From positions 1-26,762 of the forward strand of contig JBBUAI010000013.1 in the NCBI GenBank assembly GCA_038058745.1: a stretch of 26,762 bases of DNA, given 5' to 3'. The notes under the pieces are model-generated. The model saw only the letters and a program-made list of their open reading frames with translations, made no database searches and was not told where the DNA came from. Both the position numbers and the translations under genes were made by a program. Source of the stretch: Patescibacteria group bacterium. GTDB taxonomy: Bacteria > Patescibacteriota > Minisyncoccia > Phycocordibacterales > Zambryskibacteraceae. How positions within the stretch are numbered: the stretch's first letter is position 1; every line of letters begins with the position of its first letter. Below are positions 1,988-26,128 of the stretch, piece after piece.

Positions 1988-2037
1988 AAGATTGCCACCA
2001 TACGTTAAGATTTCCCTGTGGTGAAAAGATAACGTAT

Positions 2038-2071
2038 ACATCTAACTCTAGCTATAGCAGAAGATAGATGT
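2038..2071. repeat. Palindromic element copy D: ACATCTA-N6-GCTATAGC-N6-TAGATGT
   Basis: 7-bp inverted arms (acatcta / tagatgt) placed symmetrically around the palindromic core gctatagc. Same core and geometry as the copies at 3401, 24217 and 24842. Lies in the convergent tlyA/rpsA intergenic region. Confidence 0.4.
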
Positions 2072-2073
2072 AA

Positions 2074-2147: not shown

Positions 2148-3269
2148 CTATTTCTTTTCTACAAACGAGAAAGCCATTTTCTGCTCCTTCGGGTCGAACA
2201 AAGTGATTTTGAAGGTGTAGGTCTTGCCCATCTCGAGCTTCTCGCGCAATTTTTCTTCCGAGCCGAACTCCGAGATGTGGATAAGACCAGCGACGCCTTC
2301 TTCTATCGAGGCGAGCGCGCCGTGCTTGTTGTATTTGATGATAACGCCTTCGACCACATCATCTTTCTTGTAAATCTTCGAGGCTTCTTTCCACGGATTC
2401 TCCTTGAGCGCCTTGATAGAGAGGGAAATCTTGTCATCCTTGATTTCTATAACCTTCACTCTGACCTTCTCACCGATTTTAAACATAGTTTTCGGATTCT
2501 CTACCAAGCCCCAGTCGATTTCCGAGATATGCACCAAGCCCTCGAGGCCTTCCTCGAGCTTGACGAAGACGCCGAAGTCCACGAGCCCCGTCACTTCGCC
2601 CATAAGTTCATCGCCGAGCGAATATTTGGAGACGATATTTTCCTTATCTTTAGTTTCAGGAGATTTTTCTGAGAAGATTAATTTCCCTTCTTTGGGATTT
2701 ACGCCGATGATAGTGACCGAGAGCTTCTCACCGATGAGCTTCTTAAGCTCATCGAGGATTTTATCTTTATCTCCATCGGAGATGCGCGGGTAGTGCTCCG
2801 GCTTCAGCTGCGATGCCGGGAGGAATCCGATAATGCCCTGCCAGTTGATGATGAGACCGCCCTTATTAGCATCCGTTATTGGGAGCTCGAATATACGCTT
2901 CTCGCGGATAGCATCTTCGGCTTCGTTCCAGATGATGGCCTGACGCGCTTCCTTGAGAGAAATTTCGAAATATCCTTCAGCGCCACCCACGCCCACGACC
3001 TTGCCGGCGACGATATCACCGACGTTAATCTTCTTGATAATGTCGCGGGCGTTGATGAACTCGCGCCCGTAGATGATGCCCGTGCCGAAAGGTGGCAGGT
3101 CGATGTAGACCGCGCCCTTATCAATGGAGATAACCGGCCCTTCCATCAAGTCGTCGACCGCCGGCGGAGCAGGGATTTTGTCTAGGAAACTTGATGCAGG
3201 AGCTTCAGCAGGAAATATTGCCTCGCTTTTAACTTCTTCTATCTTTTTCTTGCGTGTAAATAATGCCAT
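2148..3269 (-). CDS. rpsA: 30S ribosomal protein S1 (short, 373 aa, multi-S1-domain)
   Basis: Repeated S1 (OB-fold) domain signatures, e.g. 'GEVTGLVDFGVFVKLEEGLEGLVHISEI' and 'VEGVIIKYNKHGALASIEEGVAGLIHISEF', and the 'KVRVKVIEIKDDKISLSIK' pattern. Confidence 0.9.
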   Translation of the reverse strand: MALFTRKKKIEEVKSEAIFPAEAPASSFLDKIPAPPAVDDLMEGPVISIDKGAVYIDLPPFGTGIIYGREFINARDIIKKINVGDIVAGKVVGVGGAEGYFEISLKEARQAIIWNEAEDAIREKRIFELPITDANKGGLIINWQGIIGFLPASQLKPEHYPRISDGDKDKILDELKKLIGEKLSVTIIGVNPKEGKLIFSEKSPETKDKENIVSKYSLGDELMGEVTGLVDFGVFVKLEEGLEGLVHISEIDWGLVENPKTMFKIGEKVRVKVIEIKDDKISLSIKALKENPWKEASKIYKKDDVVEGVIIKYNKHGALASIEEGVAGLIHISEFGSEEKLREKLEMGKTYTFKITLFDPKEQKMAFSFVEKK

Positions 3270-3372
3270 ATGATCCGCCAGCTGACGGATGCCGCTTCCG
3301 GTCCGACTGCTTCATCTGTGTTTGCCAGAGCAGCCGGGATAACAGAAACGGTTGCTAATAAATAACTACGCT

Positions 3373-3400
3373 ACTATATCAGAATCTCTAAAAAATTCAA
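3373..3400 (-). promoter_or_regulatory. Candidate sigma70-type promoter for rpsA (TTGAAT-16-TATAGT on the minus strand)
   Basis: Reverse complement reads TTGAAT tttttagagattctga TATAGT. The -35 abuts palindromic element copy A. It would give a ~95-nt 5'UTR. Confidence 0.35.
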
Positions 3401-3438
3401 CTACATAATAAGAATCCTATAGGACCACTATTATGTAG
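3401..3438. repeat. Palindromic element copy A: CTACATAATA-N18-TATTATGTAG with central CCTATAGG
   Basis: Perfect 10-bp inverted arms with palindromic centre cctatagg. The reverse complement matches copy C in 13 consecutive nt (ctactacataata), the CTATAG core and TTATTATGT. Confidence 0.55.
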
Positions 3439-3583
3439 TAGTTAAATAATTAAATAATGAAAAGGGCGGGACCATCACGGTCCCGCCCTGGTTGATCTCG
3501 GTTCCGCCGATCACGGTTGCGCGCACGTTGGTCCGAGCGAATTCCAGAACTTCCGAGAAGACCGCCAACTTGTCAGTCCGCAT
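3431..3583 (-). CDS. Possible 50-codon small ORF (MRTDKLAVFSEVLEFARTNVRATVIGGTEINQGGTVMVPPFSLFNYLTTT) inside an orphan promoter-to-terminator unit
   Basis: AGGAGG sits 8 nt upstream of the ATG (3583). It is below the ORF-track length cutoff. The terminator hairpin lies inside its 3' coding part, so it may instead be a small RNA. Confidence 0.3.
   Translation of the reverse strand: MRTDKLAVFSEVLEFARTNVRATVIGGTEINQGGTVMVPPFSLFNYLTTT
3452..3488 (-). terminator. Rho-independent terminator on the minus strand
   Basis: Minus strand reads GGGCGGGACC-GTGAT-GGTCCCGCCC followed by TTTTCATTATTT (10-bp GC-rich perfect stem plus U-run). No U-run follows it on the plus strand. Confidence 0.6.
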
Positions 3584-3603
3584 AATGTAAACCTCCTGTT
3601 ACC

Positions 3604-3632
3604 ATATTATCATATTTAAACTTAAATGTCAA
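3604..3632 (-). promoter_or_regulatory. Strong sigma70-like promoter on the minus strand: TTGACA-17-TAATAT
   Basis: Reverse complement of 3604..3632 is TTGACA tttaagtttaaatatga TAATAT. The predicted TSS is just upstream of the AGGAGG at 3598..3593. Confidence 0.5.
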
Positions 3633-3663: not shown

Positions 3664-3669
3664 TTAGCT

Positions 3670-4164
3670 ATGATTATCAGCTACCAAGGGGTAGAGAGCT
3701 TCAAGATTTCCCAAGGCGATTTGACGCTTGCGTTGAACCCGCAAGCGAAGGTATCAGCCGATATCACTCTCTTCACCAAAGGCCGAAATGAGACATCAGA
3801 GAAATCTGGTTTTGTTATAGACAGCCCGGGCGAATACGAAATAAAAAATGTTTTCATCAAAGGATTCCTTGATAAGACATATCTTGTGACATTTGAAGGA
3901 ATCAAATTATGCTTTCTTGGTTCAAAGGCGGAGCAGGAAGAAATTGAGGATATCGACATCCTCTTCGTGCGGCCTAACGCTTATAAAGCCGCGGTGGCTC
4001 TGGAGCCGGCTGTAATCATTCCGATGAATTATGATAAAAACACTCTGGCCCAGTTTCTGAAAGAAGCCGGAGAAGACAAAGTTCTACCACTCGACAAATT
4101 CGTGGTAAAGAAGAAGGACCTCGAGGGCATGGAAAGCGAGATAGTTGTTCTGAAAGAGGAATAG
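3670..4164 (+). CDS. Hypothetical protein; N-terminus resembles MBL-fold (UPF0173-like) hydrolases but lacks the HxHxDH metal motif
   Basis: 'MIISYQGVESFKISQGDLTLALNPQ' resembles the 'MKITYLGHS.F.IE.G...L.DP' opening of UPF0173/MBL proteins. No His-rich motif follows. 164 aa. Confidence 0.55.
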   Translation: MIISYQGVESFKISQGDLTLALNPQAKVSADITLFTKGRNETSEKSGFVIDSPGEYEIKNVFIKGFLDKTYLVTFEGIKLCFLGSKAEQEEIEDIDILFVRPNAYKAAVALEPAVIIPMNYDKNTLAQFLKEAGEDKVLPLDKFVVKKKDLEGMESEIVVLKEE

Positions 4165-8217: not shown

Positions 8218-8523
8218 ATGAAAGATTTAATTGTCTGCGACGGAGTAACGGTGCCATGCACTTTCGAAAAACTTGTTGAACTGGTGGAGGTTATCATTAC
8301 CGACCTGGTCTACCTCTCAACCTTTCTTGCCGTAGCCGCCTTCGCTTACGCTGGCTACATTCTTCTCACCTCCGGAGGCAATACCTCAGCCCGTGACAGA
8401 GCCAAGAGCATATTTCTCAAAGTACTTATCGGCTATGTGTGGATACTCGCGGCCTGGCTTGTGGTTTACACTATAACCAGTGTTTTGCTTAATCCCGGGT
8501 ATTCTCTGCTCGGTGCGCCATGA
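8218..8523 (+). CDS. Small two-TM membrane protein (VirB2/TrbC-like hairpin architecture), array member 1
   Basis: TM1 LVYLSTFLAVAAFAYAGYILL, short polar loop (TSGGNTSARDRAKS), TM2 IFLKVLIGYVWILAAWLVVYTI. 101 aa. Confidence 0.55.
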   Translation: MKDLIVCDGVTVPCTFEKLVELVEVIITDLVYLSTFLAVAAFAYAGYILLTSGGNTSARDRAKSIFLKVLIGYVWILAAWLVVYTITSVLLNPGYSLLGAP

Positions 8524-8527
8524 TAAA

Positions 8528-8881
8528 ATGAAAAAAATAATTCTTACCGCATATTACTTTCTCATCATTTCTTCGGCTTTTGCCCAGGGTGATGTCGAGC
8601 ATAGGATAGAAATCAAAAATCCCTTCGGCCGCGGCATCGACTCGCTCTTCGACCTTTTGAAAACGGTGGTAAACGATATCATCTTGCCTATAGGGGGAGT
8701 GCTCGCGGTGCTTGCTTTCATCTATTCCGGCTTTCTCTATGTGACGGCGCAGGGCAACGATACCAAGCTCAAGACGGCACACAACGCCCTTCTTTATACC
8801 GCCATAGGCACGGCGGTGCTTCTCGGTTCCTGGACTCTGGCCAATGTCATCAGCAATACTATCGATAAACTGAAGACATGA
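8528..8881 (+). CDS. Small secreted/two-TM protein (VirB2/TrbC-like), array member 2
   Basis: Start chosen at MKKIIL (8528), 5 nt after the upstream stop. Sec-type signal peptide (...SSAFAQG) followed by two hydrophobic helices separated by 'TAQGNDTKLKTAHN'. Confidence 0.55.
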   Translation: MKKIILTAYYFLIISSAFAQGDVEHRIEIKNPFGRGIDSLFDLLKTVVNDIILPIGGVLAVLAFIYSGFLYVTAQGNDTKLKTAHNALLYTAIGTAVLLGSWTLANVISNTIDKLKT

Positions 8882-9168
8882 AAGACCCCCGCACATTCGC
8901 CGACATAATAAAGATTTTTACCGGTTTAATCAGTCTTGCCGTTCCCGTCGTGGCTGCCTTGGCGCTTCTCGCCTTTCTTAAAGGTTTGGTCGCTTTTATC
9001 GCCAAGGCGGGAGATGAGAAGAGTCATGCGGAAGGCAAAAATCTCATGGTCTGGGGCCTCGTCGCTCTTTTTGTCATGGTGTCGATTTGGGGAATAGTAC
9101 GCTTCCTATCTGGAGAGGTTGGTTTCGGCCCCACCTTAAAGCTTCCCTTTTTACCCCCAGTCAAGTAA
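8878..9168 (+). CDS. Small two-TM protein, array member 3 (paralog of members 4 to 6)
   Basis: ATGA start/stop overlap with member 2. Conserved block 'ALLAFLKGLVAFIAKAGDEKSHAEGKNLMVWGLVALFVMVSIWGIV'. Confidence 0.6.
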   Translation: MKDPRTFADIIKIFTGLISLAVPVVAALALLAFLKGLVAFIAKAGDEKSHAEGKNLMVWGLVALFVMVSIWGIVRFLSGEVGFGPTLKLPFLPPVK

Positions 9169-9178
9169 TATTAAAATC

Positions 9179-9529
9179 ATGAATAAATTGACCAAAGTCT
9201 GCATTCTCACTCTGGCGGCTATTCCTTCTATGGTGTTCGCGCAAGGGCGGATTATTTTATTGCTTACAGATGTAAAGTACATCATAAGAACTCTTATCAT
9301 CATAGTCGCGGCTATTGCTCTCCTGGTTTTCTTCTGGGGCCTGGTTAGATTTATTTTCAAGGTTGGCGGAAGCGAAGAAGCGGTAAAAGAAGGCAGAACT
9401 CTCATGATATGGGGGTTAATCGCCCTCTTCGTCATGGTTACAGTGTGGGGGTTAATAAGCTTTATAGAAAGGGAAATATTCGGCACTCTTGATAAGAGTG
9501 ACCCTAATATTCCAAGCTTTAGACCTTAG
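9179..9529 (+). CDS. Small two-TM protein with signal peptide, array member 4
   Basis: Signal peptide ending AQG, then 'ALLVFFWGLVRFIFKVGGSEEAVKEGRTLMIWGLIALFVMVTVWGLISFI', clearly paralogous to members 3, 5 and 6. Confidence 0.6.
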   Translation: MNKLTKVCILTLAAIPSMVFAQGRIILLLTDVKYIIRTLIIIVAAIALLVFFWGLVRFIFKVGGSEEAVKEGRTLMIWGLIALFVMVTVWGLISFIEREIFGTLDKSDPNIPSFRP

Positions 9530-9533
9530 AATA

Positions 9534-9877
9534 GTAGGGGATAACCCCCACACCTATTTTTCTATTGTCGCAAATCATATAATACGTCTATGTATTATGT
9601 ATTATGTGTATATTCTAAAAAGTAAAAAAGATAACAATTTGTATTATGGTTCCACAAATGATTTGCGACGCAGGCTAGTAGAGCACAATACTGGTAAAAA
9701 TCGCTCTACCAAAGCTAGAAAACCATTTGAGCTGCGCTATTACGAAGCTTACTATAACGAAAATGATGCCAGAGGTAGAGAGTATTCTTTAAAGAAGGAC
9801 GGTAGAGCTTTAGCGCAGCTCAGGCGGAGGTTAGAAAATAGCCTGCTATAGAGAAATAGGTGTGGGGGATAACCCGG
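9534..9877. mobile_element. AT-rich ~340-bp cassette: GIY-YIG nuclease gene bounded by ~22-bp imperfect terminal inverted repeats, inserted within the two-TM gene array
   Basis: Left end GGGGATAACCCCCACACCTATTT (9537..9559). Right end AAATAGGTGTGGGGGATAACCCGG (9854..9877). The inner 15 nt (CCCCCACACCTATTT) are identical in inverted orientation. Each end also contains a GGGG-ATAA-CCCC mini-hairpin. Cassette GC is about 33% versus about 48% in the flanking genes. Confidence 0.45.
9597..9851 (+). CDS. GIY-YIG nuclease superfamily protein (YhbQ/UPF0213-like), 85 aa
   Basis: 'YYVYILKSKKDNNLYYGSTNDLRRRLVEHN...GKNRSTKARKPFELRYYEAY..ENDARGREYSLKK' carries the GIY...YIG, catalytic Arg and Glu/Asn motifs. 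Start placed at the in-frame ATG at 9597, where the domain begins. Confidence 0.8.
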   Translation: MYYVYILKSKKDNNLYYGSTNDLRRRLVEHNTGKNRSTKARKPFELRYYEAYYNENDARGREYSLKKDGRALAQLRRRLENSLL

Positions 9878-9965
9878 TTGTCTTTATAGTCCCTTGACGT
9901 ATCATAGATATATACCATCAGGTATTAAAATTAGTAGTAAATAGTAGATAGTAAATAGTAAATAA

Positions 9966-10310
9966 ATGAAAAAAGTTATTCTTGCCGCTCTGGCCCTGGC
10001 CCCCTCACTCGCTTTCGCACAGAATCTAGGCAACCTTAATAATCTCATAACCTCCGTTGGCAATCTTGTTGAGCTTGCCTTGCCTATTGTGGTAGCAATT
10101 GCGCTCCTCGCCTTCTTCTGGGGTTTGGTCAAATTCATCTTCTCTGCTTCCGGTGAAGAGGCGCATAAGGAAGGCCAGCGCCTGATGATCTGGGGCCTCG
10201 TTGCCCTCTTCGTCATGGTTTCCGTCTGGGGACTTGTAAAGTTTATCGGCACCGCCCTCGGCGTCCAGCAGGGAGATACCATCATTGTCCCAAGAGTTCC
10301 GGGCATATAG
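9966..10310 (+). CDS. Small two-TM protein with signal peptide, array member 5
   Basis: 'MKKVILAALALAPSLAFAQ' signal peptide, then 'ALLAFFWGLVKFIFSASGEEAHKEGQRLMIWGLVALFVMVSVWGLVKFI'. A tandem AT-rich repeat (gtaaatagtaRat x2, 9937..9963) precedes it. Confidence 0.6.
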   Translation: MKKVILAALALAPSLAFAQNLGNLNNLITSVGNLVELALPIVVAIALLAFFWGLVKFIFSASGEEAHKEGQRLMIWGLVALFVMVSVWGLVKFIGTALGVQQGDTIIVPRVPGI

Positions 10311-10364
10311 TTTCGACTCCGCTGGTTCAATATCCTCACCATAAATCACTACAAGTAGTCTCTA

Positions 10365-10631
10365 ATGCCGATAGAATCGTTCCTGAACAAAATCAATCAG
10401 TTCATCCTTAACCCTATAATCGGGCTTGCGTTTGCCGTCGCCCTCCTCGTCTTCTTCTGGGGAATCTTCCAGTTCATCAATTCGGAGACGACTGATGCCA
10501 AGCGCGATGAGGGGAAGAGAAAGATTTTCTACGGACTTCTCGGCATGTTCATCATGATTTCCGCCTTCGGCCTTATCCGCTTGATTTTGAACACCTTCGG
10601 CATCACTCCGCCTTCTTACCCCGGATTCTGA
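10365..10631 (+). CDS. Small two-TM protein, array member 6 (no signal peptide)
   Basis: 'IIGLAFAVALLVFFWGIFQFI...DEGKRKIFYGLLGMFIMISAFGLIRLIL' is paralogous to members 3 to 5. Confidence 0.55.
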   Translation: MPIESFLNKINQFILNPIIGLAFAVALLVFFWGIFQFINSETTDAKRDEGKRKIFYGLLGMFIMISAFGLIRLILNTFGITPPSYPGF

Positions 10632-16662: not shown

Positions 16663-17886
16663 ATGAGACAGAGCCAACTCTTTACTAAAACTCGCCGGGA
16701 GGCGCCAGCGGATGAAGTCTCCAAGAACGCCATTCTCCTCACCCGCGCCGGATTCATACACAAAGAAATGGCGGGCGTTTATTCATATCTGCCTTTGGGA
16801 TTGAAAGTGCTTAAAAAGATAGAAAGTGTTATTCGCGAAGAAATGGACAAGCTTGGTGCGCAGGAAATTGAGTTGGCGACATTTCAAAACAAGGAATTGT
16901 GGGAAAAGACAAATCGTTGGGACGATAAAATTATTGACGTTTGGTACAAATTGCGTGATGAAGATATTGGATTAGGATTTACACATGAGGAACCATTGAC
17001 TGCTATCGCAAAGGAATACGTGCAATCATACCGAGACCTACCCTTCTCCGCTTATCAATTCCAGACAAAATTCAGAAGAGAATTAAGGACTAAATCAGGT
17101 ATTATGCGTGGCCGAGAGTTTCTAATGAAAGATCTCTATTCTTTCTGTGAAAATTATGATCAGCATCGTGATTTTTATAAAAAAGCACAGGACTCATATA
17201 AACGGATTTTTGATAGAGTAGGAATAGGTCATTTAACGTATCTAACCTATGCGTCTGGCGGTAGTTTTTCAGATGTCTCTCATGAATTCCAAACAATTAC
17301 TGCTTCTGGTGAAGATATAATATTTATACGCGAAGAAAATGATTATGCAGTTAATAAAGAAATATTTAATGATGAGTGGAAGGCGAAACTTAATATGAAC
17401 AAGTTTAGGGAGGAGAAATCAATTGAGGTGGGAAATATATTTAATCTAGGCACAAAATTTTCAGAAGCTCTAGGTTTGAAATATAAAGAGATTGACGGAA
17501 GTGAAAGGCCGGTATGGATGGGCTCATATGGTATTGGTTTGGGAAGACTCATGGGCACTGTAGTCGAAGTGCTTTCAGATGAGAAGGGAATTGTCTGGCC
17601 GAAAGAGGTAGCGCCGTTTCAAGTTCATTTAATTTCTCTCAATCAGAATGAGCTCTCGGATGAGGTTTATAAAACCCTTAGAGCCAATAAAATAGACGTT
17701 CTTTATGATGACCGCGATGTTCGCGCCGGGGAAAAGTTCGCAGACGCAGACTTAATTGGTATCCCGCTCCGCGTCGTGATTGGGGAAAAGTCTCTTGAAT
17801 CAAAAATGCTTGAGGTCAAAAATAGGAATGCCGATGAGGTACGACAGGTTACTCTCGAATATTTGCTCGAGGAGTTAAAAAGTTAA
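16663..17886 (+). CDS. proS: Prolyl-tRNA synthetase, bacterial-like N-terminus but lacking an editing (INS) domain (407 aa)
   Basis: 'MRQSQLFTKTRREAPADE...LLTRAGFI......Y..LPLGLKVLKKIE.VIREEM' parallels E. coli ProS. Class II motif 2 'FRRELRTKSGIMRGREFLMKDLYSF' and motif 3 'GSYGIGLGRLMG' are present. Confidence 0.9.
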   Translation: MRQSQLFTKTRREAPADEVSKNAILLTRAGFIHKEMAGVYSYLPLGLKVLKKIESVIREEMDKLGAQEIELATFQNKELWEKTNRWDDKIIDVWYKLRDEDIGLGFTHEEPLTAIAKEYVQSYRDLPFSAYQFQTKFRRELRTKSGIMRGREFLMKDLYSFCENYDQHRDFYKKAQDSYKRIFDRVGIGHLTYLTYASGGSFSDVSHEFQTITASGEDIIFIREENDYAVNKEIFNDEWKAKLNMNKFREEKSIEVGNIFNLGTKFSEALGLKYKEIDGSERPVWMGSYGIGLGRLMGTVVEVLSDEKGIVWPKEVAPFQVHLISLNQNELSDEVYKTLRANKIDVLYDDRDVRAGEKFADADLIGIPLRVVIGEKSLESKMLEVKNRNADEVRQVTLEYLLEELKS

Positions 17887-22187: not shown

Positions 22188-23750
22188 TTGGAGCACCAAA
22201 AAAATAGATTTGATTTTTCGAAAGTGAAAGACAAAACTTCCTGGGCCTCACAGGCGGCGGATGAAATTATTGCCGCGCATCCTGGCGAAGGAGCATATGT
22301 GACGGCCGCTGGCATCAGTCCTTCGGGAGTGGTGCACTTTGGCAATTTCCGCGACGTGGCAACTGCTCACCTGGTACGGGAAGAACTGGTCAGAAAAGGC
22401 AAAAAATCCAAACTCATCTTCTCCTGGGACAATTTTGACCGTTTCCGAAAAATTCCGGCCGGTGTGCCGGAATCCTTCTCCGAGTATATCGGCAAGCCGC
22501 TTTCCAAAATTCCCGACCCTATGGGTAAACTTTCTTCATACGCGGAGCATTTCCAAAAGCTGTTTGTCGAAGCGATGCGAAAACTTAACATCGAAATCGA
22601 GTATCGTGACCAGACGACTTTGTATGAAAGCGGTATTTATGATGAAGCGATTTTTGAAGCGCTTAAGAAGAGGAAGGAAATCGCGGATATTCTACTCTCC
22701 TTCATGTCGGAGAAAGCAAAGGGGGAGAAGGGTATTAATCCCGCCGAATACCAGGAAAACTATTATCCTATTTCCGTCTACTCCCGCTTTACAGGCAAAG
22801 ATACCACGAAGGTTCTTAGATTCGACGGTAATACCAGTATCACTTATCTCTGTGTCGAAACGGGCAAGGAAGAGCCCATAGACCTTTCAAAAGAACATAT
22901 CGCCAAGCTTGCCTGGAAAGTGGATTGGCCCATGAGGTGGCGGCACGAGAGGGTGGTTTTCGAGCCAGGCGGACACGACCACGCTTCCCCGGGGTCGAGC
23001 TTCGACATCGGTACGGAGATTGCGCCGAAAATATTCGATTACAATCCACCGCTTTTCGTCGAGTATAAATTTGTGGGCATCCAGGGCCTCGGCGCTAAGA
23101 TGTCCGGTTCAAAGGGTAATGCCATCTCTCCCTTAGAGCTCATGGAAGTCTATGAGCCGGAGGTGTTGAAGTGGCTTTACTTCAGGAAGTCGCCCGACCA
23201 ATCATTCGAACTCGCTTTCAATACGGAAATTTATCGCCAATATGATGAATACGACGCAGAACATTTGGAACTTAATTCCATCCCATTCCGCCAGGTAGTC
23301 GGCTTCGGACAGGTTGTGCAATGGCAGGAGAATAAATTAAAAACCATTCTTGATGCGCTCAATTTAAAATACAGTACAAAAAGTATTTCCAGCCGACTAC
23401 CGCTCGCGAAAAATTGGCTCGAGAAATACAATCCATACGAAGTAATAAAATTAAACAATACTCCAAACTCCTCTTACGCGTTTTCCATGAATGATGTGGG
23501 GAGAAGACAAATCAATCGGTTGCGGGAAGAATTGGAGAAAAATAAAAATGCTTCAGTCCAGGAGCTGGATATCCTGGTCTACGATATTCCAAAATTGCCA
23601 GGGTTGAACGAAGAAGAATTAAAGAAAGCTCAAAGAGCGTTCTTTAAAGACGTTTACAATCTTTTAATAAACAGGGATGCTGGTCCTCGCCTCGGCACTT
23701 TCCTCTGGGCTGCGGATAGGGGACAAGTTTTGAAGCTATTGACTTTTTAA
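22188..23750 (+). CDS. lysK: Class I lysyl-tRNA synthetase (LysK type)
   Basis: TTG start adjacent to the greA stop. HIGH-like 'GISPSGVVHFGNFRDV' and KMSKS-like 'KMSGSKGNAISP' match class I LysRS rather than class II LysS. Confidence 0.8.
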   Translation: MEHQKNRFDFSKVKDKTSWASQAADEIIAAHPGEGAYVTAAGISPSGVVHFGNFRDVATAHLVREELVRKGKKSKLIFSWDNFDRFRKIPAGVPESFSEYIGKPLSKIPDPMGKLSSYAEHFQKLFVEAMRKLNIEIEYRDQTTLYESGIYDEAIFEALKKRKEIADILLSFMSEKAKGEKGINPAEYQENYYPISVYSRFTGKDTTKVLRFDGNTSITYLCVETGKEEPIDLSKEHIAKLAWKVDWPMRWRHERVVFEPGGHDHASPGSSFDIGTEIAPKIFDYNPPLFVEYKFVGIQGLGAKMSGSKGNAISPLELMEVYEPEVLKWLYFRKSPDQSFELAFNTEIYRQYDEYDAEHLELNSIPFRQVVGFGQVVQWQENKLKTILDALNLKYSTKSISSRLPLAKNWLEKYNPYEVIKLNNTPNSSYAFSMNDVGRRQINRLREELEKNKNASVQELDILVYDIPKLPGLNEEELKKAQRAFFKDVYNLLINRDAGPRLGTFLWAADRGQVLKLLTF

Positions 23751-23811: not shown

Positions 23812-24156
23812 ATGAGAAATCGAGCAAGTCTCGACCCCATCGTCTGGAGTTCATTTGGCCTGCTCATGTTCGTCTTTGGACTGTTGGGATTTGTTATCGC
23901 CCAACAATCCGCAAACGAGAACACCGCACTCAAGGAGAGTCTTACCGGCCCAGTCACGGAAGCAGTAGTGCTTCCAAATGGCGAGCAGTACAAGGTACTC
24001 ACTTTGGGCAACCGCCGGTTCCTGGCCGCAGAAATTATCGAAACAGTAGAGGGTGGCCCAACATGCGAGAGTCTCATCGTCTACGGTTCCGGCACCCGCG
24101 TGTATAACCCGGTGAGGTTCGAGTGCCATCAGAGACAGTCAATATTCGGCAAGTAG
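23812..24156 (+). CDS. Small membrane-anchored hypothetical protein (114 aa)
   Basis: GAGGAGAAAGAG SD. One N-terminal TM (FGLLMFVFGLLGFVIA). Followed directly by a strong terminator. The 23784..24107 frame is rejected in its favour. Confidence 0.5.
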   Translation: MRNRASLDPIVWSSFGLLMFVFGLLGFVIAQQSANENTALKESLTGPVTEAVVLPNGEQYKVLTLGNRRFLAAEIIETVEGGPTCESLIVYGSGTRVYNPVRFECHQRQSIFGK

Positions 24157-24163
24157 TTAAGAA

Positions 24164-24197
24164 GGGCGGAAGCGCTAACGCGCTTCCGCCCTTTCTT
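24164..24197 (+). terminator. Strong Rho-independent terminator
   Basis: GGGCGGAAGCGC-TAAC-GCGCTTCCGCCC (12-bp perfect stem) followed by TTTCTT. Confidence 0.8.
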
Positions 24198-24216: not shown

Positions 24217-24254
24217 CTACATTTTAATAATGCTATAGCATCCTTATAATGTAT
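24217..24254. repeat. Palindromic element copy B: CTACATTTTAATAAT-GCTATAGC-ATCCTTATAATGTA
   Basis: Direct repeat of copy C at about 80% identity, with the same gctatagcatc core and the same flank lengths. Abuts the stop codon of the wHTH/Cas2-like gene. Confidence 0.55.
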
Positions 24255-24824
24255 TTAGATAAGATTGAAATCCATCCGTAAATACTTGTCGTTTTCTATT
24301 TGGTCCACTATCATGTAAAGCAAATTCTTTCCTATACCTAGATCAGTTTTCATCAAGCCCATAACATCTTCGCAATCGTAAGGATAAACCCAAACGCTGT
24401 CTTGTAGCCGGATGAATCCTGTGGCTGAAAGTATTTTTCTAACCCGTTCTCGCATTTTCTTTTTCTTCTCCGGAATGTCGAAGATTATCACTCGCCACTT
24501 TTTATCCCATCTTTTTGGACGTTTAATTCGATAGTTAGACATTTGCCATTGATCTAATATTTTTGTTCCGGCTGCAGTAGGAGAATAATGCCCGTTCTCA
24601 AATATAAGCAATCCTTTTCGGCTTAAGCGACTTGCGGCAGATTTCACTATCTCACTTTTTCTTGGAGAAGTAGCGGAGAAATCAGTATCGAGCAGGGAGT
24701 CTATTACTTGTTTTGCTAGCATATCTCCTCCTATTCTTCCGCTAGAAACAATAACTAAAAGAATTGCCTCCTGCATTTTTGTTCTTCTTAAATTTTTTCT
24801 AGTTGCTTCCTCGAGATTTCCCAT
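24255..24824 (-). CDS. Hypothetical regulator-like protein: N-terminal winged-helix-like region plus a C-terminal segment resembling the Cas2/VapD beta-alpha-beta core
   Basis: C-terminal 'WRVIIFDIPEKKKKMRERVRKILSATGFIRLQDSVWVYP' resembles the Cas2 N-terminal core as recalled from memory ('hhVhV.YDIs.dkRRrKlaKlL.dyG.RvQ.SVFEc'). N-terminal 'EIVKSAASRLSRKGLLIFENG' looks like a wHTH recognition helix plus wing. About 38% GC. Flanked by palindromic copies B and C. The start may be Met1 or Met17. Confidence 0.55.
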   Translation of the reverse strand: MGNLEEATRKNLRRTKMQEAILLVIVSSGRIGGDMLAKQVIDSLLDTDFSATSPRKSEIVKSAASRLSRKGLLIFENGHYSPTAAGTKILDQWQMSNYRIKRPKRWDKKWRVIIFDIPEKKKKMRERVRKILSATGFIRLQDSVWVYPYDCEDVMGLMKTDLGIGKNLLYMIVDQIENDKYLRMDFNLI

Positions 24825-24841
24825 TTTTAGTTACTATTCTA

Positions 24842-24879
24842 CTACATAATAATAAAGCTATAGCATCGTTATTATGTTT
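24842..24879. repeat. Palindromic element copy C: CTACATAATAATAAA-GCTATAGC-ATCGTTATTATGTTTA
   Basis: 8-bp inverted arms cataataa / ttattatg placed symmetrically around gctatagc. It lies 18 nt upstream of the wHTH/Cas2-like start, over its presumed promoter (TAGAAT 13 nt upstream of the ATG). Confidence 0.55.
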
Positions 24880-24901: not shown

Positions 24902-26128
24902 TTATTTTCTCTCTTTTATCTCGTCTTTAAGTTTGATAATCAAATCGTCGGGAGACATTTGGCCCAAGTTTCCGGCATCTCGGCTTTCGACAGAGACTTT
25001 CTTATCAGCCACTTCCTTGTCTCCGATGACGAGGGCGTAGGGAACTTTCTCTATTTTGAAATTACGGATCTTCTTGCTTAGAGTTTCGTTTGACACATCC
25101 ATCTCCACTCTCATATTAGCTGCTTTAAGCTTATCCATTACTTCGGTGGCGTAGAGGAAGTGAGTTTCGCCAATAGGCAAGATTTTCACTTGTACTGGAG
25201 CGAGCCAGAGAGGGAAGGCGCCAGCGTATTTCTCGATTAAAAAGGCCATGAATCTTTCTATCGTTCCAACCGAAGAACGGTGAATAACGAATGCACGATG
25301 TTTCTTGCCATCTTCACCAATGTAAGAGAGATCGAACCTGTCAGGCATACAGAAATCGTACTGGACAGTAAATGCCGTATCTTCTTTGCCATTCACGTTT
25401 TTTATCTGAATGTCAATCTTCGGTCCATAGAAAGCCGCCTCACCCTTAGCTTCCTCGAATTCACCTACACGCTTCTTTAGAAGTTGTCGCAGAAGCTGCT
25501 CACTTTTCTCCCAAGCTTTATCATTTTTGTAATATTTCTCAGTGTTACTCCTATCGCCCATAGATAATCTGTAACGATAATCTCTGCCAAGCTCAAGCCC
25601 AAAGACGCTAGCCACATACTCTATAAGATCCAAGGCCTTACTGGCTTCTTCTACAGCCTGCTCCTCAGATGCGCAGATGATATGAGCATCAGAAAGGCAC
25701 ATAGCTCTAGTTCTCTGAAGGCCCATAAGCTCTCCTGATTGCTCGTAGCGATAGAGTTTTGCCCATTCAGCAATACGCATCGGAAGGTCTTTATAGCTTC
25801 TGGGTCTACTTAAATACATCTCAAAATGATGCGGGCAAGTCATTGGACGAAGTATAAATTCCTCATCATCTATAACAATAGGAGCATACATACTGTCCTG
25901 GTAATGAGGATAGTGACCAGATTTCTTATATAAATCTAACTTTGCGATATCGGGAGTGTAGACATGCATATAACCGCGTAACGTTTCTTCCTCAACAATA
26001 AATTTCTCGATCTCGCGCCTGATGATCGAACCTTTAGGCAGCCAGAGGGGGAGCCCTTTACCCACGGTATCCGAGAAGGTAAAAAGCTCCAGCTCTTTAC
26101 CTAACTTCTTATGGTCCCTTTCTTCCAT
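24902..26128 (-). CDS. thrS: Threonyl-tRNA synthetase, catalytic core plus anticodon-binding domain only (no TGS or editing N-domains)
   Basis: 'RDHKKLGKELELF', 'PMTCPHH', 'TRAMCLSDAHIIC', 'FYGPKIDIQI', 'QYDFCMPDRF' and 'HRSSVGTIERFMAFLIEKYAGAFPLWLAPVQVKILPI' match the ThrRS class II core and anticodon-binding domain. 408 aa. Confidence 0.9.
   Translation of the reverse strand: MEERDHKKLGKELELFTFSDTVGKGLPLWLPKGSIIRREIEKFIVEEETLRGYMHVYTPDIAKLDLYKKSGHYPHYQDSMYAPIVIDDEEFILRPMTCPHHFEMYLSRPRSYKDLPMRIAEWAKLYRYEQSGELMGLQRTRAMCLSDAHIICASEEQAVEEASKALDLIEYVASVFGLELGRDYRYRLSMGDRSNTEKYYKNDKAWEKSEQLLRQLLKKRVGEFEEAKGEAAFYGPKIDIQIKNVNGKEDTAFTVQYDFCMPDRFDLSYIGEDGKKHRAFVIHRSSVGTIERFMAFLIEKYAGAFPLWLAPVQVKILPIGETHFLYATEVMDKLKAANMRVEMDVSNETLSKKIRNFKIEKVPYALVIGDKEVADKKVSVESRDAGNLGQMSPDDLIIKLKDEIKERK

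Follow-up and report, generated by a model that had tools for sequence, protein, structure and literature searches.

The window, that is, the whole 26,762-nt stretch of DNA analyzed (positions 1 to 26,762 of contig JBBUAI010000013.1 in the Patescibacteria group bacterium assembly GCA_038058745.1), contains on its minus strand a gene encoding a 189-aa PaaX-like protein, which is bracketed by two copies of a 36-bp palindrome. The window was found to lie in contig CAYIXK010000002.1 of the metagenome-assembled genome GCA_964367465.1, and near-identical contigs were present in ENA assemblies named Hain_H51 and in the Logan assemblies of two sequencing runs. The gene is surrounded by thrS, lysK, greA, dnaE, and similar housekeeping genes, with no paa genes among these neighbors. 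The elements of the locus were as follows:

24255..24824, minus strand: PaaX-like protein gene, 189 aa, ATG start (open reading frame (ORF) calling, Pfam, NCBIfam, Foldseek)
24843..24878, no strand assigned: upstream palindrome TACATAATAATAAAGCTATAGCATCGTTATTATGTT, 36 bp, one mismatch to TACAT-N10-CTATAG-N10-ATGTA; candidate autoregulatory operator
24218..24253, no strand assigned: downstream palindrome TACATTTTAATAATGCTATAGCATCCTTATAATGTA, 36 bp, no mismatches; second candidate cognate site
24836..24841, minus strand: putative hexamer TAGAAT resembling a -10 box, located after the upstream palindrome and before the ATG, read by eye; no -35 match
24162..24193, no strand assigned: G+C-rich hairpin AAGGGCGGAAGCGC-taac-GCGCTTCCGCCCTT between a 114-aa ORF and the downstream palindrome, read by eye

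The upstream palindrome lies 23 nt past the thrS stop codon and ends 18 nt before the start codon of the gene, and the downstream palindrome starts 1 nt past its stop codon. The pattern TACAT-N10-CTATAG-N10-ATGTA had four matches in the window with up to one mismatch against 0.09 expected, and four matches were never reached by shuffles. When the two gene-flanking palindromes were compared, they were identical at 30 of 36 positions in direct orientation versus 27 of 36 in inverted orientation. The position of the upstream palindrome was the same in the relatives L006, L008, and L010 (L-numbers denote the loci of relatives compared), in which the hexamers equivalent to TAGAAT were TAAGAT, TAGTAT, or TATAAT. 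In the clades with TACATC and TACGT arms, the ATG adjoins the upstream palindrome, and in the TACGT clade TATAAT was found in the left arm of nearly every upstream copy and not in the downstream copies. The hairpin at 24162..24193, which was not called by the terminator scan, is by its sequence a probable terminator shared by convergent units. The 114-aa ORF (23812-24156, plus strand), located between lysK and the downstream palindrome, had 53% G+C content (GC) and no Pfam match; its strand was disputed between gene callers, and it was not called at that position in L006 and L008.

The 189-aa protein consists of a winged helix (approximately residues 15-96) followed by a Cas2-like PaaX_M domain (approximately residues 104-185). 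The PF20803 model (PaaX_M, "PaaX central Cas2-like domain") matched residues 104-174 with an E-value of 1.2e-19 in Pfam, scoring 70.7 bits against a cutoff of 24 over profile positions 2-72 of 83, which identifies the domain as PaaX_M. The match to PF09827 (Cas2) was weak (residues 110-147, E-value 2e-5, Pfam), and TIGR01573 (cas2) scored 32.6 bits versus a cutoff of 24.5 for residues 111-147 only (NCBIfam), so that the Cas2 models, matched at their positions 2-36 of 74 and 3-40 of 96, covered partial stretches of the protein. The score with TIGR02277 (PaaX, NCBIfam) was 38.7 bits, far below the cutoff of 264.55. No match to the PaaX N-terminal Pfam domain was obtained at E ≤ 1, the fold in this part being a winged helix, and no match to PaaX_C was found in Pfam or NCBIfam, the protein stopping at residue 189. 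In the Foldseek comparison with PDB, the best match was E. coli PaaX (8a39, E-value 4e-6, 183 columns aligned), followed by the PaaX-like Rv0674 (3kfw) and then by the Cas2 structures 5zyf, 2ivy, and 3exc. The architecture appears to be that of the N-terminal and central module of a PaaX repressor without the C-terminal effector domain. There is no transposase, recombinase, or HUH motif, the domains found being the winged helix and PaaX_M only.

The Cas2-like domain carries the beta1-alpha1-beta2 signature hhhhFDIPE...R...L...GF.rLQ.SVW. Residue D116 (in WRVIIFDIPE, at the end of beta1) was invariant in 58 homologues and present in 69 of 70 aligned homologues according to the alignment count; judging from the model register, we take it to occupy the position of the catalytic Asp of Cas2. 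The residue lies within a D-x-x-E helix-capping box, so that it can have a structural role. Sequence searches of PDB with the whole protein, its C-terminal half, and the family profile gave marginal matches only, and therefore the Cas2 Asp register is not demonstrable residue by residue.

The first-pass annotation, made from the letters alone, had described a 189-aa minus-strand ORF with a winged-helix N-terminus and a Cas2-like C-terminus, flanked in direct orientation by two palindromes, with a GC of about 38% against a host average near 50% and with no CRISPR array or cas1 nearby. These statements were all borne out by the ORF calling, the Pfam and Foldseek matches, the palindrome comparison given above, and a GC of 38.2% for the gene versus 48.9% for the window; no CRISPR or tandem array was found in the window, and no cas1 was found among the called genes of the contig (55-kb region) or in the relatives' loci. 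Its remark that the architecture could not be mapped to a described system did not hold, since the protein corresponds to the N-terminal and central domains of PaaX.

More than 1800 homologues were found with a word index, nearly all of about 190 aa, and those named belonged to Candidatus Zambryskibacteria or Parcubacteria, many of them being called "CRISPR-associated endonuclease Cas2" by NCBI. The GenBank name "Cas2" for members of this family is a misannotation. The profile search gave 4971 clusters at 50% identity (E ≤ 1e-3), of which the best 150 were almost all 165-215 aa long, and a single weak match to the family was found in 2.9 million viral contigs. The exact pattern was scanned in one genome per species (185,579 species) and gave at least 117 stretches; among the matches listed, all but one, from Paenibacillus, were in lineages labelled Patescibacteria, except for two contigs in bins labelled Gammaproteobacteria and Nanoarchaeota, and approximately 40 of the stretches listed held a homologue between two sites. 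Because this first sample was picked by the DNA pattern, a second one was drawn by protein alone; it comprised 80 loci from metagenome contigs (40-71% identity), 75 of which had at least 100 nt on both sides of the gene. A related pair of 36-bp partial palindromes flanked the gene in 65 of these 75 loci versus 0 of 139 random 565-bp control segments, and several of the ten loci counted as negative were visibly bracketed too. A homologue with 60% identity located in another neighborhood was also bracketed. The arms varied widely by clade (TACAT, TACGT, TACAC, TGTAC, GGGAAC, ACAACA, ATTACC, and others), and the centers were few: CTATAG in 42 loci, CGGTCG or CGACCG in 11, and more rarely CTATCG, CTGTGG, CTGCGG, and CCATGG. 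The best-supported conclusion from these sequence comparisons is that the family, in the data examined, appears to be confined to Patescibacteria and that a pair of 36-bp palindromes, specific to each paralogue, brackets its genes. In the literature on PaaX/Cas2-like proteins of Patescibacteria or Parcubacteria and on PF20803, no description of the family was found, and this near-universal site-gene-site arrangement is, as far as we found, undescribed.

Two or three paralogues were present per genome, and the palindromes around each of them were of a distinct subtype; the subtype tracked the protein tree, and the extra sites in a genome fell into the subtypes of its paralogues. On one contig, where the genes L155 and L162 are about 9.3 kb apart, the TACGTTA arms were common to both site sets, with differences in the center and inner positions (CACGGTCGTG vs ATGCTATAGCAT), so that arm identity alone cannot separate them. 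Two protein positions covaried with the sites. Residue 142 (LQ-D-SVW) belongs to the turn joining beta2 and beta3 in the Cas2-like domain; D142 was present in all 38 proteins in which both centers were CTATAG, whereas all 15 proteins with N, E, or K at this position had another center at one or both sites (Fisher p = 8e-7), and the nearest D142 relative of every non-D142 protein (49-73% identical) had the center CTATAG. The substitutions fell into at least five apparently independent lineages (L008; L139; L160/L168; L156/L167/L172; L169/L170; and the more distant L177 group). Mutual information between all protein columns and the center type revealed no clean column; the residue-142 signal was clear once the centers were split by exact sequence. 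At residue 59, in the predicted recognition helix, all 19 proteins with TACG arms carried Y or F, and all 22 with TACA arms carried I or V. According to the self-complementarity analysis, positions 6-8 and 14-15 of the palindrome were paired in 72-99% of cases versus 33-70% expected, and positions 11-12 in only 49-55%, near chance; the mismatches showed no excess of G:T over A:C on the sense strand (45 vs 40 overall). This pattern of symmetry and the absent G:T excess point to recognition of DNA by a dimer and not to an RNA hairpin. Binding of the palindromes by the protein is thus strongly supported by bracketing, paralogue-specific subtypes, and covariation, all of them sequence evidence.

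The low GC of the gene was accompanied by a low third-codon-position GC (GC3), 0.35 versus 0.52-0.70 for most neighboring genes. Since AT-richness is a family-wide trait (on average 4.8 points below the flanks in 48 loci, and below the flanks in 92%), it is no evidence of recent acquisition at this locus. The gene order dnaE-thrS-gene-aminoacyl-tRNA synthetase-greA was kept in relatives of 72-74% identity, with both palindromes retained in those of 72-73%, and other paralogues kept their own neighbors (Obg/MYG1, gyrB). Judging from this comparison, the cassette does not appear to be a recent insertion here.

Based on these data, it is proposed, with a probability of roughly 0.6, that the protein, which is not a CRISPR Cas2, is a sequence-specific two-domain DNA-binding protein of the PaaX type whose dimer occupies all 36 bp of a site and shuts down transcription of its own gene. 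A homodimer joined via the Cas2-like domain would cover one palindrome; its two winged helices would read the outer arms TACAT and ATGTA, which are separated by some three turns of the helix like those of the PaaX operator, and the CTATAG center would be read by the Cas2-like dimer placed on the dyad, both contacts being favored by the covariation. The upstream site, which by its position overlaps the putative core promoter and start region, would mediate autorepression. The downstream site would serve as a second cognate site, most likely in a loop or as a roadblock insulating the gene from neighboring transcription, which is the weakest step of the scheme. Other cognate sites, such as the one at the rpsA promoter, may represent additional targets.

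In both the 189-aa protein and PaaX, an N-terminal winged helix (in the former without a match to the PaaX N-terminal Pfam domain) precedes a Cas2-like central (dimerization) domain, and PaaX represses its own promoter as would, by analogy, the protein proposed here. The E. coli PaaX operator is TGATTC-N27-GAATCA (PMC9493321), and the predicted site at this locus, TACAT-N26-ATGTA, located 18 nt before the ATG, likewise consists of inverted repeats about three helical turns apart. Unlike PaaX, the 189-aa protein has no PaaX_C ligand-binding (phenylacetyl-CoA) domain, falls far below the TIGR02277 cutoff, and is not accompanied by paa genes; furthermore, its site has a conserved center whose sequence changes together with a residue in the Cas2-like domain, two sites bracket the gene, and the family is, in the data examined, restricted to Patescibacteria with several paralogues per genome. 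The resemblance to Cas2 and VapD comprises the beta1-alpha1-beta2 signature, the Asp at the presumed catalytic position, and the three structural matches. Cas2 dimers lie along duplex DNA in Cas1-Cas2 complexes. The differences are a fused winged helix, the absence of cas1 and of a CRISPR array, and partial coverage of the hidden Markov models: stand-alone Cas2 proteins are approximately 90-100 aa long and match the model end to end, whereas here residues 110-147 of 189 aa were matched, and the function suggested is reading of a sequence, not spacer integration.

The rpsA gene (2148..3269, minus strand) has palindromes on both sides, and the following elements were found around it:

3402..3437, no strand assigned: extra site TACATAATAAGAATCCTATAGGACCACTATTATGTA, sharing the subtype of the two sites that flank the 189-aa protein gene, in the divergent spacer between rpsA and a gene for an MBL (metallo-beta-lactamase)-fold protein
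3373..3400, minus strand: rpsA promoter-like element TTGAAT-16-TATAGT with TG before the -10 box; -35 box 1 nt from the palindrome
2037..2072, no strand assigned: extra site TACATCTAACTCTAGCTATAGCAGAAGATAGATGTA, second subtype (TACATCTA...TAGATGTA), 75 nt downstream of rpsA
2001..2036, no strand assigned: palindrome TACGTTAAGATTTCCCTGTGGTGAAAAGATAACGTA, 36 bp, third subtype with TACGT arms and a CTGTGG center, abutting the site at 2037

The first-pass annotation had placed two further copies of the same family around rpsA. Sites were indeed found at 3402 and 2037, the latter being of another subtype, and the third-subtype palindrome at 2001..2036 had been overlooked. On one side of the site at 3402..3437 there is a terminator-like hairpin (3463-3489) and on the other the promoter-like element of rpsA, and a site was found in the same rpsA/MBL spacer of L032. 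Since the site at 3402..3437 abuts the promoter-like -35 box, control of rpsA from it is plausible on sequence, though unproven. The site at 2037..2072 matched those bracketing a clade of approximately 50%-identical paralogues in other genomes, and the site at 2001..2036 matched those bracketing the paralogue clade with TACGT arms and E142; the two sites behind rpsA would thus belong to other paralogues. The 72-bp tandem pair that they form was about 85-90% identical to that of L040 by eye, with an adjoining spacer that could not be aligned, and from this comparison it reads as a phylogenetic footprint. Within contig positions 1-40,970 of 55,348 (window and flanks), neither a further site of the main type nor the predicted second and third paralogues of the source genome were found. 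A block in the rpsA leader, GGGATAACAGAAACGGT (window 3337-3353), was identical in L032 (a Baikal Zambryskibacteria metagenome-assembled genome) with diverged surroundings and may be an rpsA leader or autoregulatory element. Upstream of rpsA there is also a tiny transcription unit (3431-3632, minus strand) with a strong promoter-like element TTGACA-17-TAATAT with TG (3632-3604) and the ribosome-binding site AGGAGG; within it, an ORF of 50 aa was called (3583-3431), whose 3' part contains the G+C-rich terminator hairpin (3489-3463) and whose stop codon lies inside the palindrome; this unit may be a small RNA or leader instead of a protein gene.

Several observations weigh against autorepression by a PaaX-type dimer as the full account. 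The extra sites (n = 75) were located in convergent spacers in 29% of cases versus a baseline of 18%, in divergent spacers in 15% versus 22%, and in co-directional spacers in 56% versus 60%, and several were at transcription-unit boundaries instead of promoters; with the convergent share high and the divergent share low, a classical repressor regulon fails to explain them. Clustering of the flanking genes revealed no functional theme, partner gene, or pathway, the neighbors being assorted housekeeping genes. The consensus scan called no full sigma-70 promoter upstream of the gene, and the helical phasing of the spacing between the two bracket copies was weak (p about 0.03, before any correction for relatedness or for the number of periods examined) and is not relied on here. 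The residue-59 signal came mostly from one clade, with one independent case (L174), and shared ancestry inflates the co-occurrence and covariation that underlie the proposed binding. Finally, 36 of 137 sites (26%) were perfect palindromes, and identical 36-mers, some of them asymmetric, occurred at several loci within some genomes; both findings also fit copy-and-paste spread. In a bolder version of the proposal, which we consider rather unlikely, the Cas2-fold dimer would read and perhaps nick the dyad while the winged helices hold the arms, and the unit would propagate or maintain its sites throughout the genome in the manner of REPIN-RAYT, or else the sites would delimit transcription units in the tiny genomes of Patescibacteria. 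In REP/RAYT systems, a single-copy gene is flanked by its own palindromic repeat, dispersed intergenic copies of which are biased to 3' ends, and several gene/repeat pairs may be present per genome, each with its own repeat class. The loci studied here are similar in that the gene is bracketed by its own palindrome and further intergenic copies of the same subtype occur; the 189-aa protein, however, is not an HUH/Y1 (IS200/IS605-like) transposase, the copies seem to number tens at most, not hundreds (at least 5-13 per genome as exact-pattern sites), the sites are at conserved orthologous positions, and there is no conserved 5' GTAG-type cleavage motif. An unlikely alternative, related to the above, is that palindrome, gene, and palindrome together constitute a selfish or domesticated mobile module, REPtron-like or a recombination-site cassette, of which the single palindromes are products or landing sites and whose protein would copy, move, or maintain the palindromes by acting on them, possibly with the Cas2-like domain as nuclease. 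This would agree with the family-wide bracketing without a conserved partner, the intergenic location of the extra sites with an excess at 3' ends, the identical and perfectly symmetric copies, the persistent AT-richness of the gene, and the near-invariance of D116, as well as with concerted evolution of the flanking copies, both sites of L008 having changed their center to CGGTCG, in inverted orientation. It would also agree with the L077 locus, where a near-identical direct duplication of about 120 bp (2860-2980 and 3667-3790), which comprises part of a terminator, a palindrome, and the 3'-terminal codons of the CCA-enzyme gene, flanks the inserted palindrome and gene, the upstream copy being decayed beyond these 120 bp; where L077 has the cassette, the orthologous spacer between the HU and CCA-enzyme genes of L023 and of L126 holds only one palindrome, and a cassette lies beside the CCA-enzyme gene in L096 too. 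Against mobility are the stable position of the gene in relatives and of the other paralogues, the retention of extra sites at orthologous positions between species, the apparently low copy number (at least some 5-15 sites, counting exact matches to the pattern, in each of the most-sampled genomes), the near-absence of the family from viral contigs, the lack of transposase, recombinase, and HUH motifs, and the possible structural role of D116; moreover, nothing beyond the 36 bp was common to the flanks in 20 of 21 brackets, the extended repeat being found only in L077.

It is quite unlikely that the palindromes, although bound, are mainly architectural, serving as roadblocks or insulators at unit boundaries or helping to organize the chromosome as the sites of the Tus/Ter, RTP, and MatP/matS systems do, with the bracket insulating the gene. 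In the Tus/Ter and RTP/Ter systems, a small DNA-binding protein (a winged-helix dimer in the case of RTP) has some ten sites in each genome, which are intergenic and about 30 bp long, and the tus and rtp genes, like the gene described here, adjoin one of their own sites, which is used for autoregulation. A role of this kind would suit the sites that lie past terminators and before the next promoter (terminator 3463-3489, palindrome 3402, -35 box), those in convergent spacers beyond terminator hairpins, the convergent share of 29%, and the retention of two abutting sites of different subtypes behind rpsA. However, Ter sites are polar and clustered at the terminus, with one system per genome, whereas perfectly symmetric sites give no polarity and several paralogues with separate site sets are unexpected for a replication-terminus system; classical terminators already adjoin many of the sites, and the 189-aa protein has no fold relationship to Tus or RTP beyond the winged helix. 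Very improbable is an action of the palindromes as hairpins of RNA or single-stranded DNA (terminators, stabilizers, or processing sites), with the link to the gene being incidental or mediated by an RNA-binding Cas2-like domain. A 16-bp stem with a UAUA loop could form, many sites are in 3' regions, and compensatory changes keep some copies perfectly palindromic (L018 vs L094), but only positions 6-8 and 14-15 showed strong pairing, with positions 11-12 near chance, the sites are not followed by a T-run, separate G+C-rich terminators stand beside them, no Rfam family matched in the window, and sites also occur in divergent, apparently non-transcribed spacers; this reading was rejected on the absence of an excess in the G:U versus A:C asymmetry test. 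The chance that the protein is a genuine CRISPR Cas2, a remnant of a lost CRISPR-Cas locus, is practically negligible. Its TIGR01573 score is above the cutoff, PADLOC gave Cas2 matches, partial ones only, and NCBI names it Cas2, but the match is limited to beta1-alpha1-beta2, the PaaX_M model fits far better, an N-terminal winged helix is present, and thousands of members have the same stand-alone architecture; the CRISPR reading was rejected because the window lacks a CRISPR array and cas1 was not among the genes called, both being absent in the relatives as well. As regards the two interpretations offered by the first-pass annotation, the one of an autoregulatory DNA-binding factor, perhaps a toxin or RNase, is upheld for palindrome binding by the bracketing, the paralogue subtypes, the covariation, and the conserved sites behind rpsA, and the toxin or RNase role found no support. 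The other, recombination sites of a mobile or defense-like module, is not supported as a recent event in view of the stable synteny, the single weak viral match, and the partial PADLOC matches, and is a live minority view for the longer past owing to the L077 duplication, the single palindromes at cassette positions elsewhere, and the persistent AT-richness. Of two traits that the annotation had, in combination, regarded as speaking against it, namely, synteny in all relatives and host-like composition, the former was found in the closest relatives and the latter was not, the gene being AT-rich there too; conserved synteny argues against recent mobility at the locus, not against the feature itself.

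Some further observations were made in the window and in the related loci. In the spacer between the HU and CCA-enzyme genes, L023 (5003-5038) and L126 (6496-6531) contain the same asymmetric palindrome in opposite orientation, as if the inner part had flipped between the inverted arms. Downstream of the cassette, the window encodes a class I lysyl-tRNA synthetase (PF01921, 520 aa, 22188-23750, plus strand), and an unannotated 520-aa gene is located there in L081 too; at the same syntenic position, close relatives have a class II synthetase (PF00152; L006 10713-12056, L008 11060-12418), and this swap may represent non-orthologous displacement at a fixed locus. The class II aminoacyl-tRNA synthetase genes at 16663-17886 (plus strand) and 24902-26128 (minus strand) also had low GC3 (0.38 and 0.46). 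In the region 8218-10480, about six short paralogous genes with weak Pfam matches to type IV secretion system pilin/TrbC were the source of the direct-repeat families D1, D2, and D8. A small ORF with a GIY-YIG domain (9597-9851, plus strand) sits inside a run of pilin-like genes and is flanked by a 28-nt inverted repeat (89% complementary; 9538-9565 and 9848-9875), a combination that looks like a miniature mobile or homing element.

Because members of the family are labelled Cas2 and are not CRISPR components, they inflate the counts of CRISPR systems in censuses of the candidate phyla radiation. To our knowledge, few regulators have been characterized in Patescibacteria, whose genomes are tiny, and two or three paralogues per genome with recognizable 36-bp sites offer a directly testable entry to gene regulation in this group, with the sites adjoining rpsA, dnaE, gyrB, dnaB, and grpE as concrete targets. 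The site-gene-site arrangement calls for a mechanism, be it a loop, an insulator, or mobility. The covariation of residue 142 with the center suggests that the Cas2 fold can read DNA sequence, which matters for the question of how PaaX, and possibly Cas2, arose. If dyad reading by the Cas2 fold in a self-bracketing system is true, it would represent sequence-specific DNA recognition by this fold and would bear on the relationship among Cas2, VapD, and PaaX, and the self-bracketing arrangement would be a new kind of protein/site system, similar to REPIN-RAYT with an unrelated protein.

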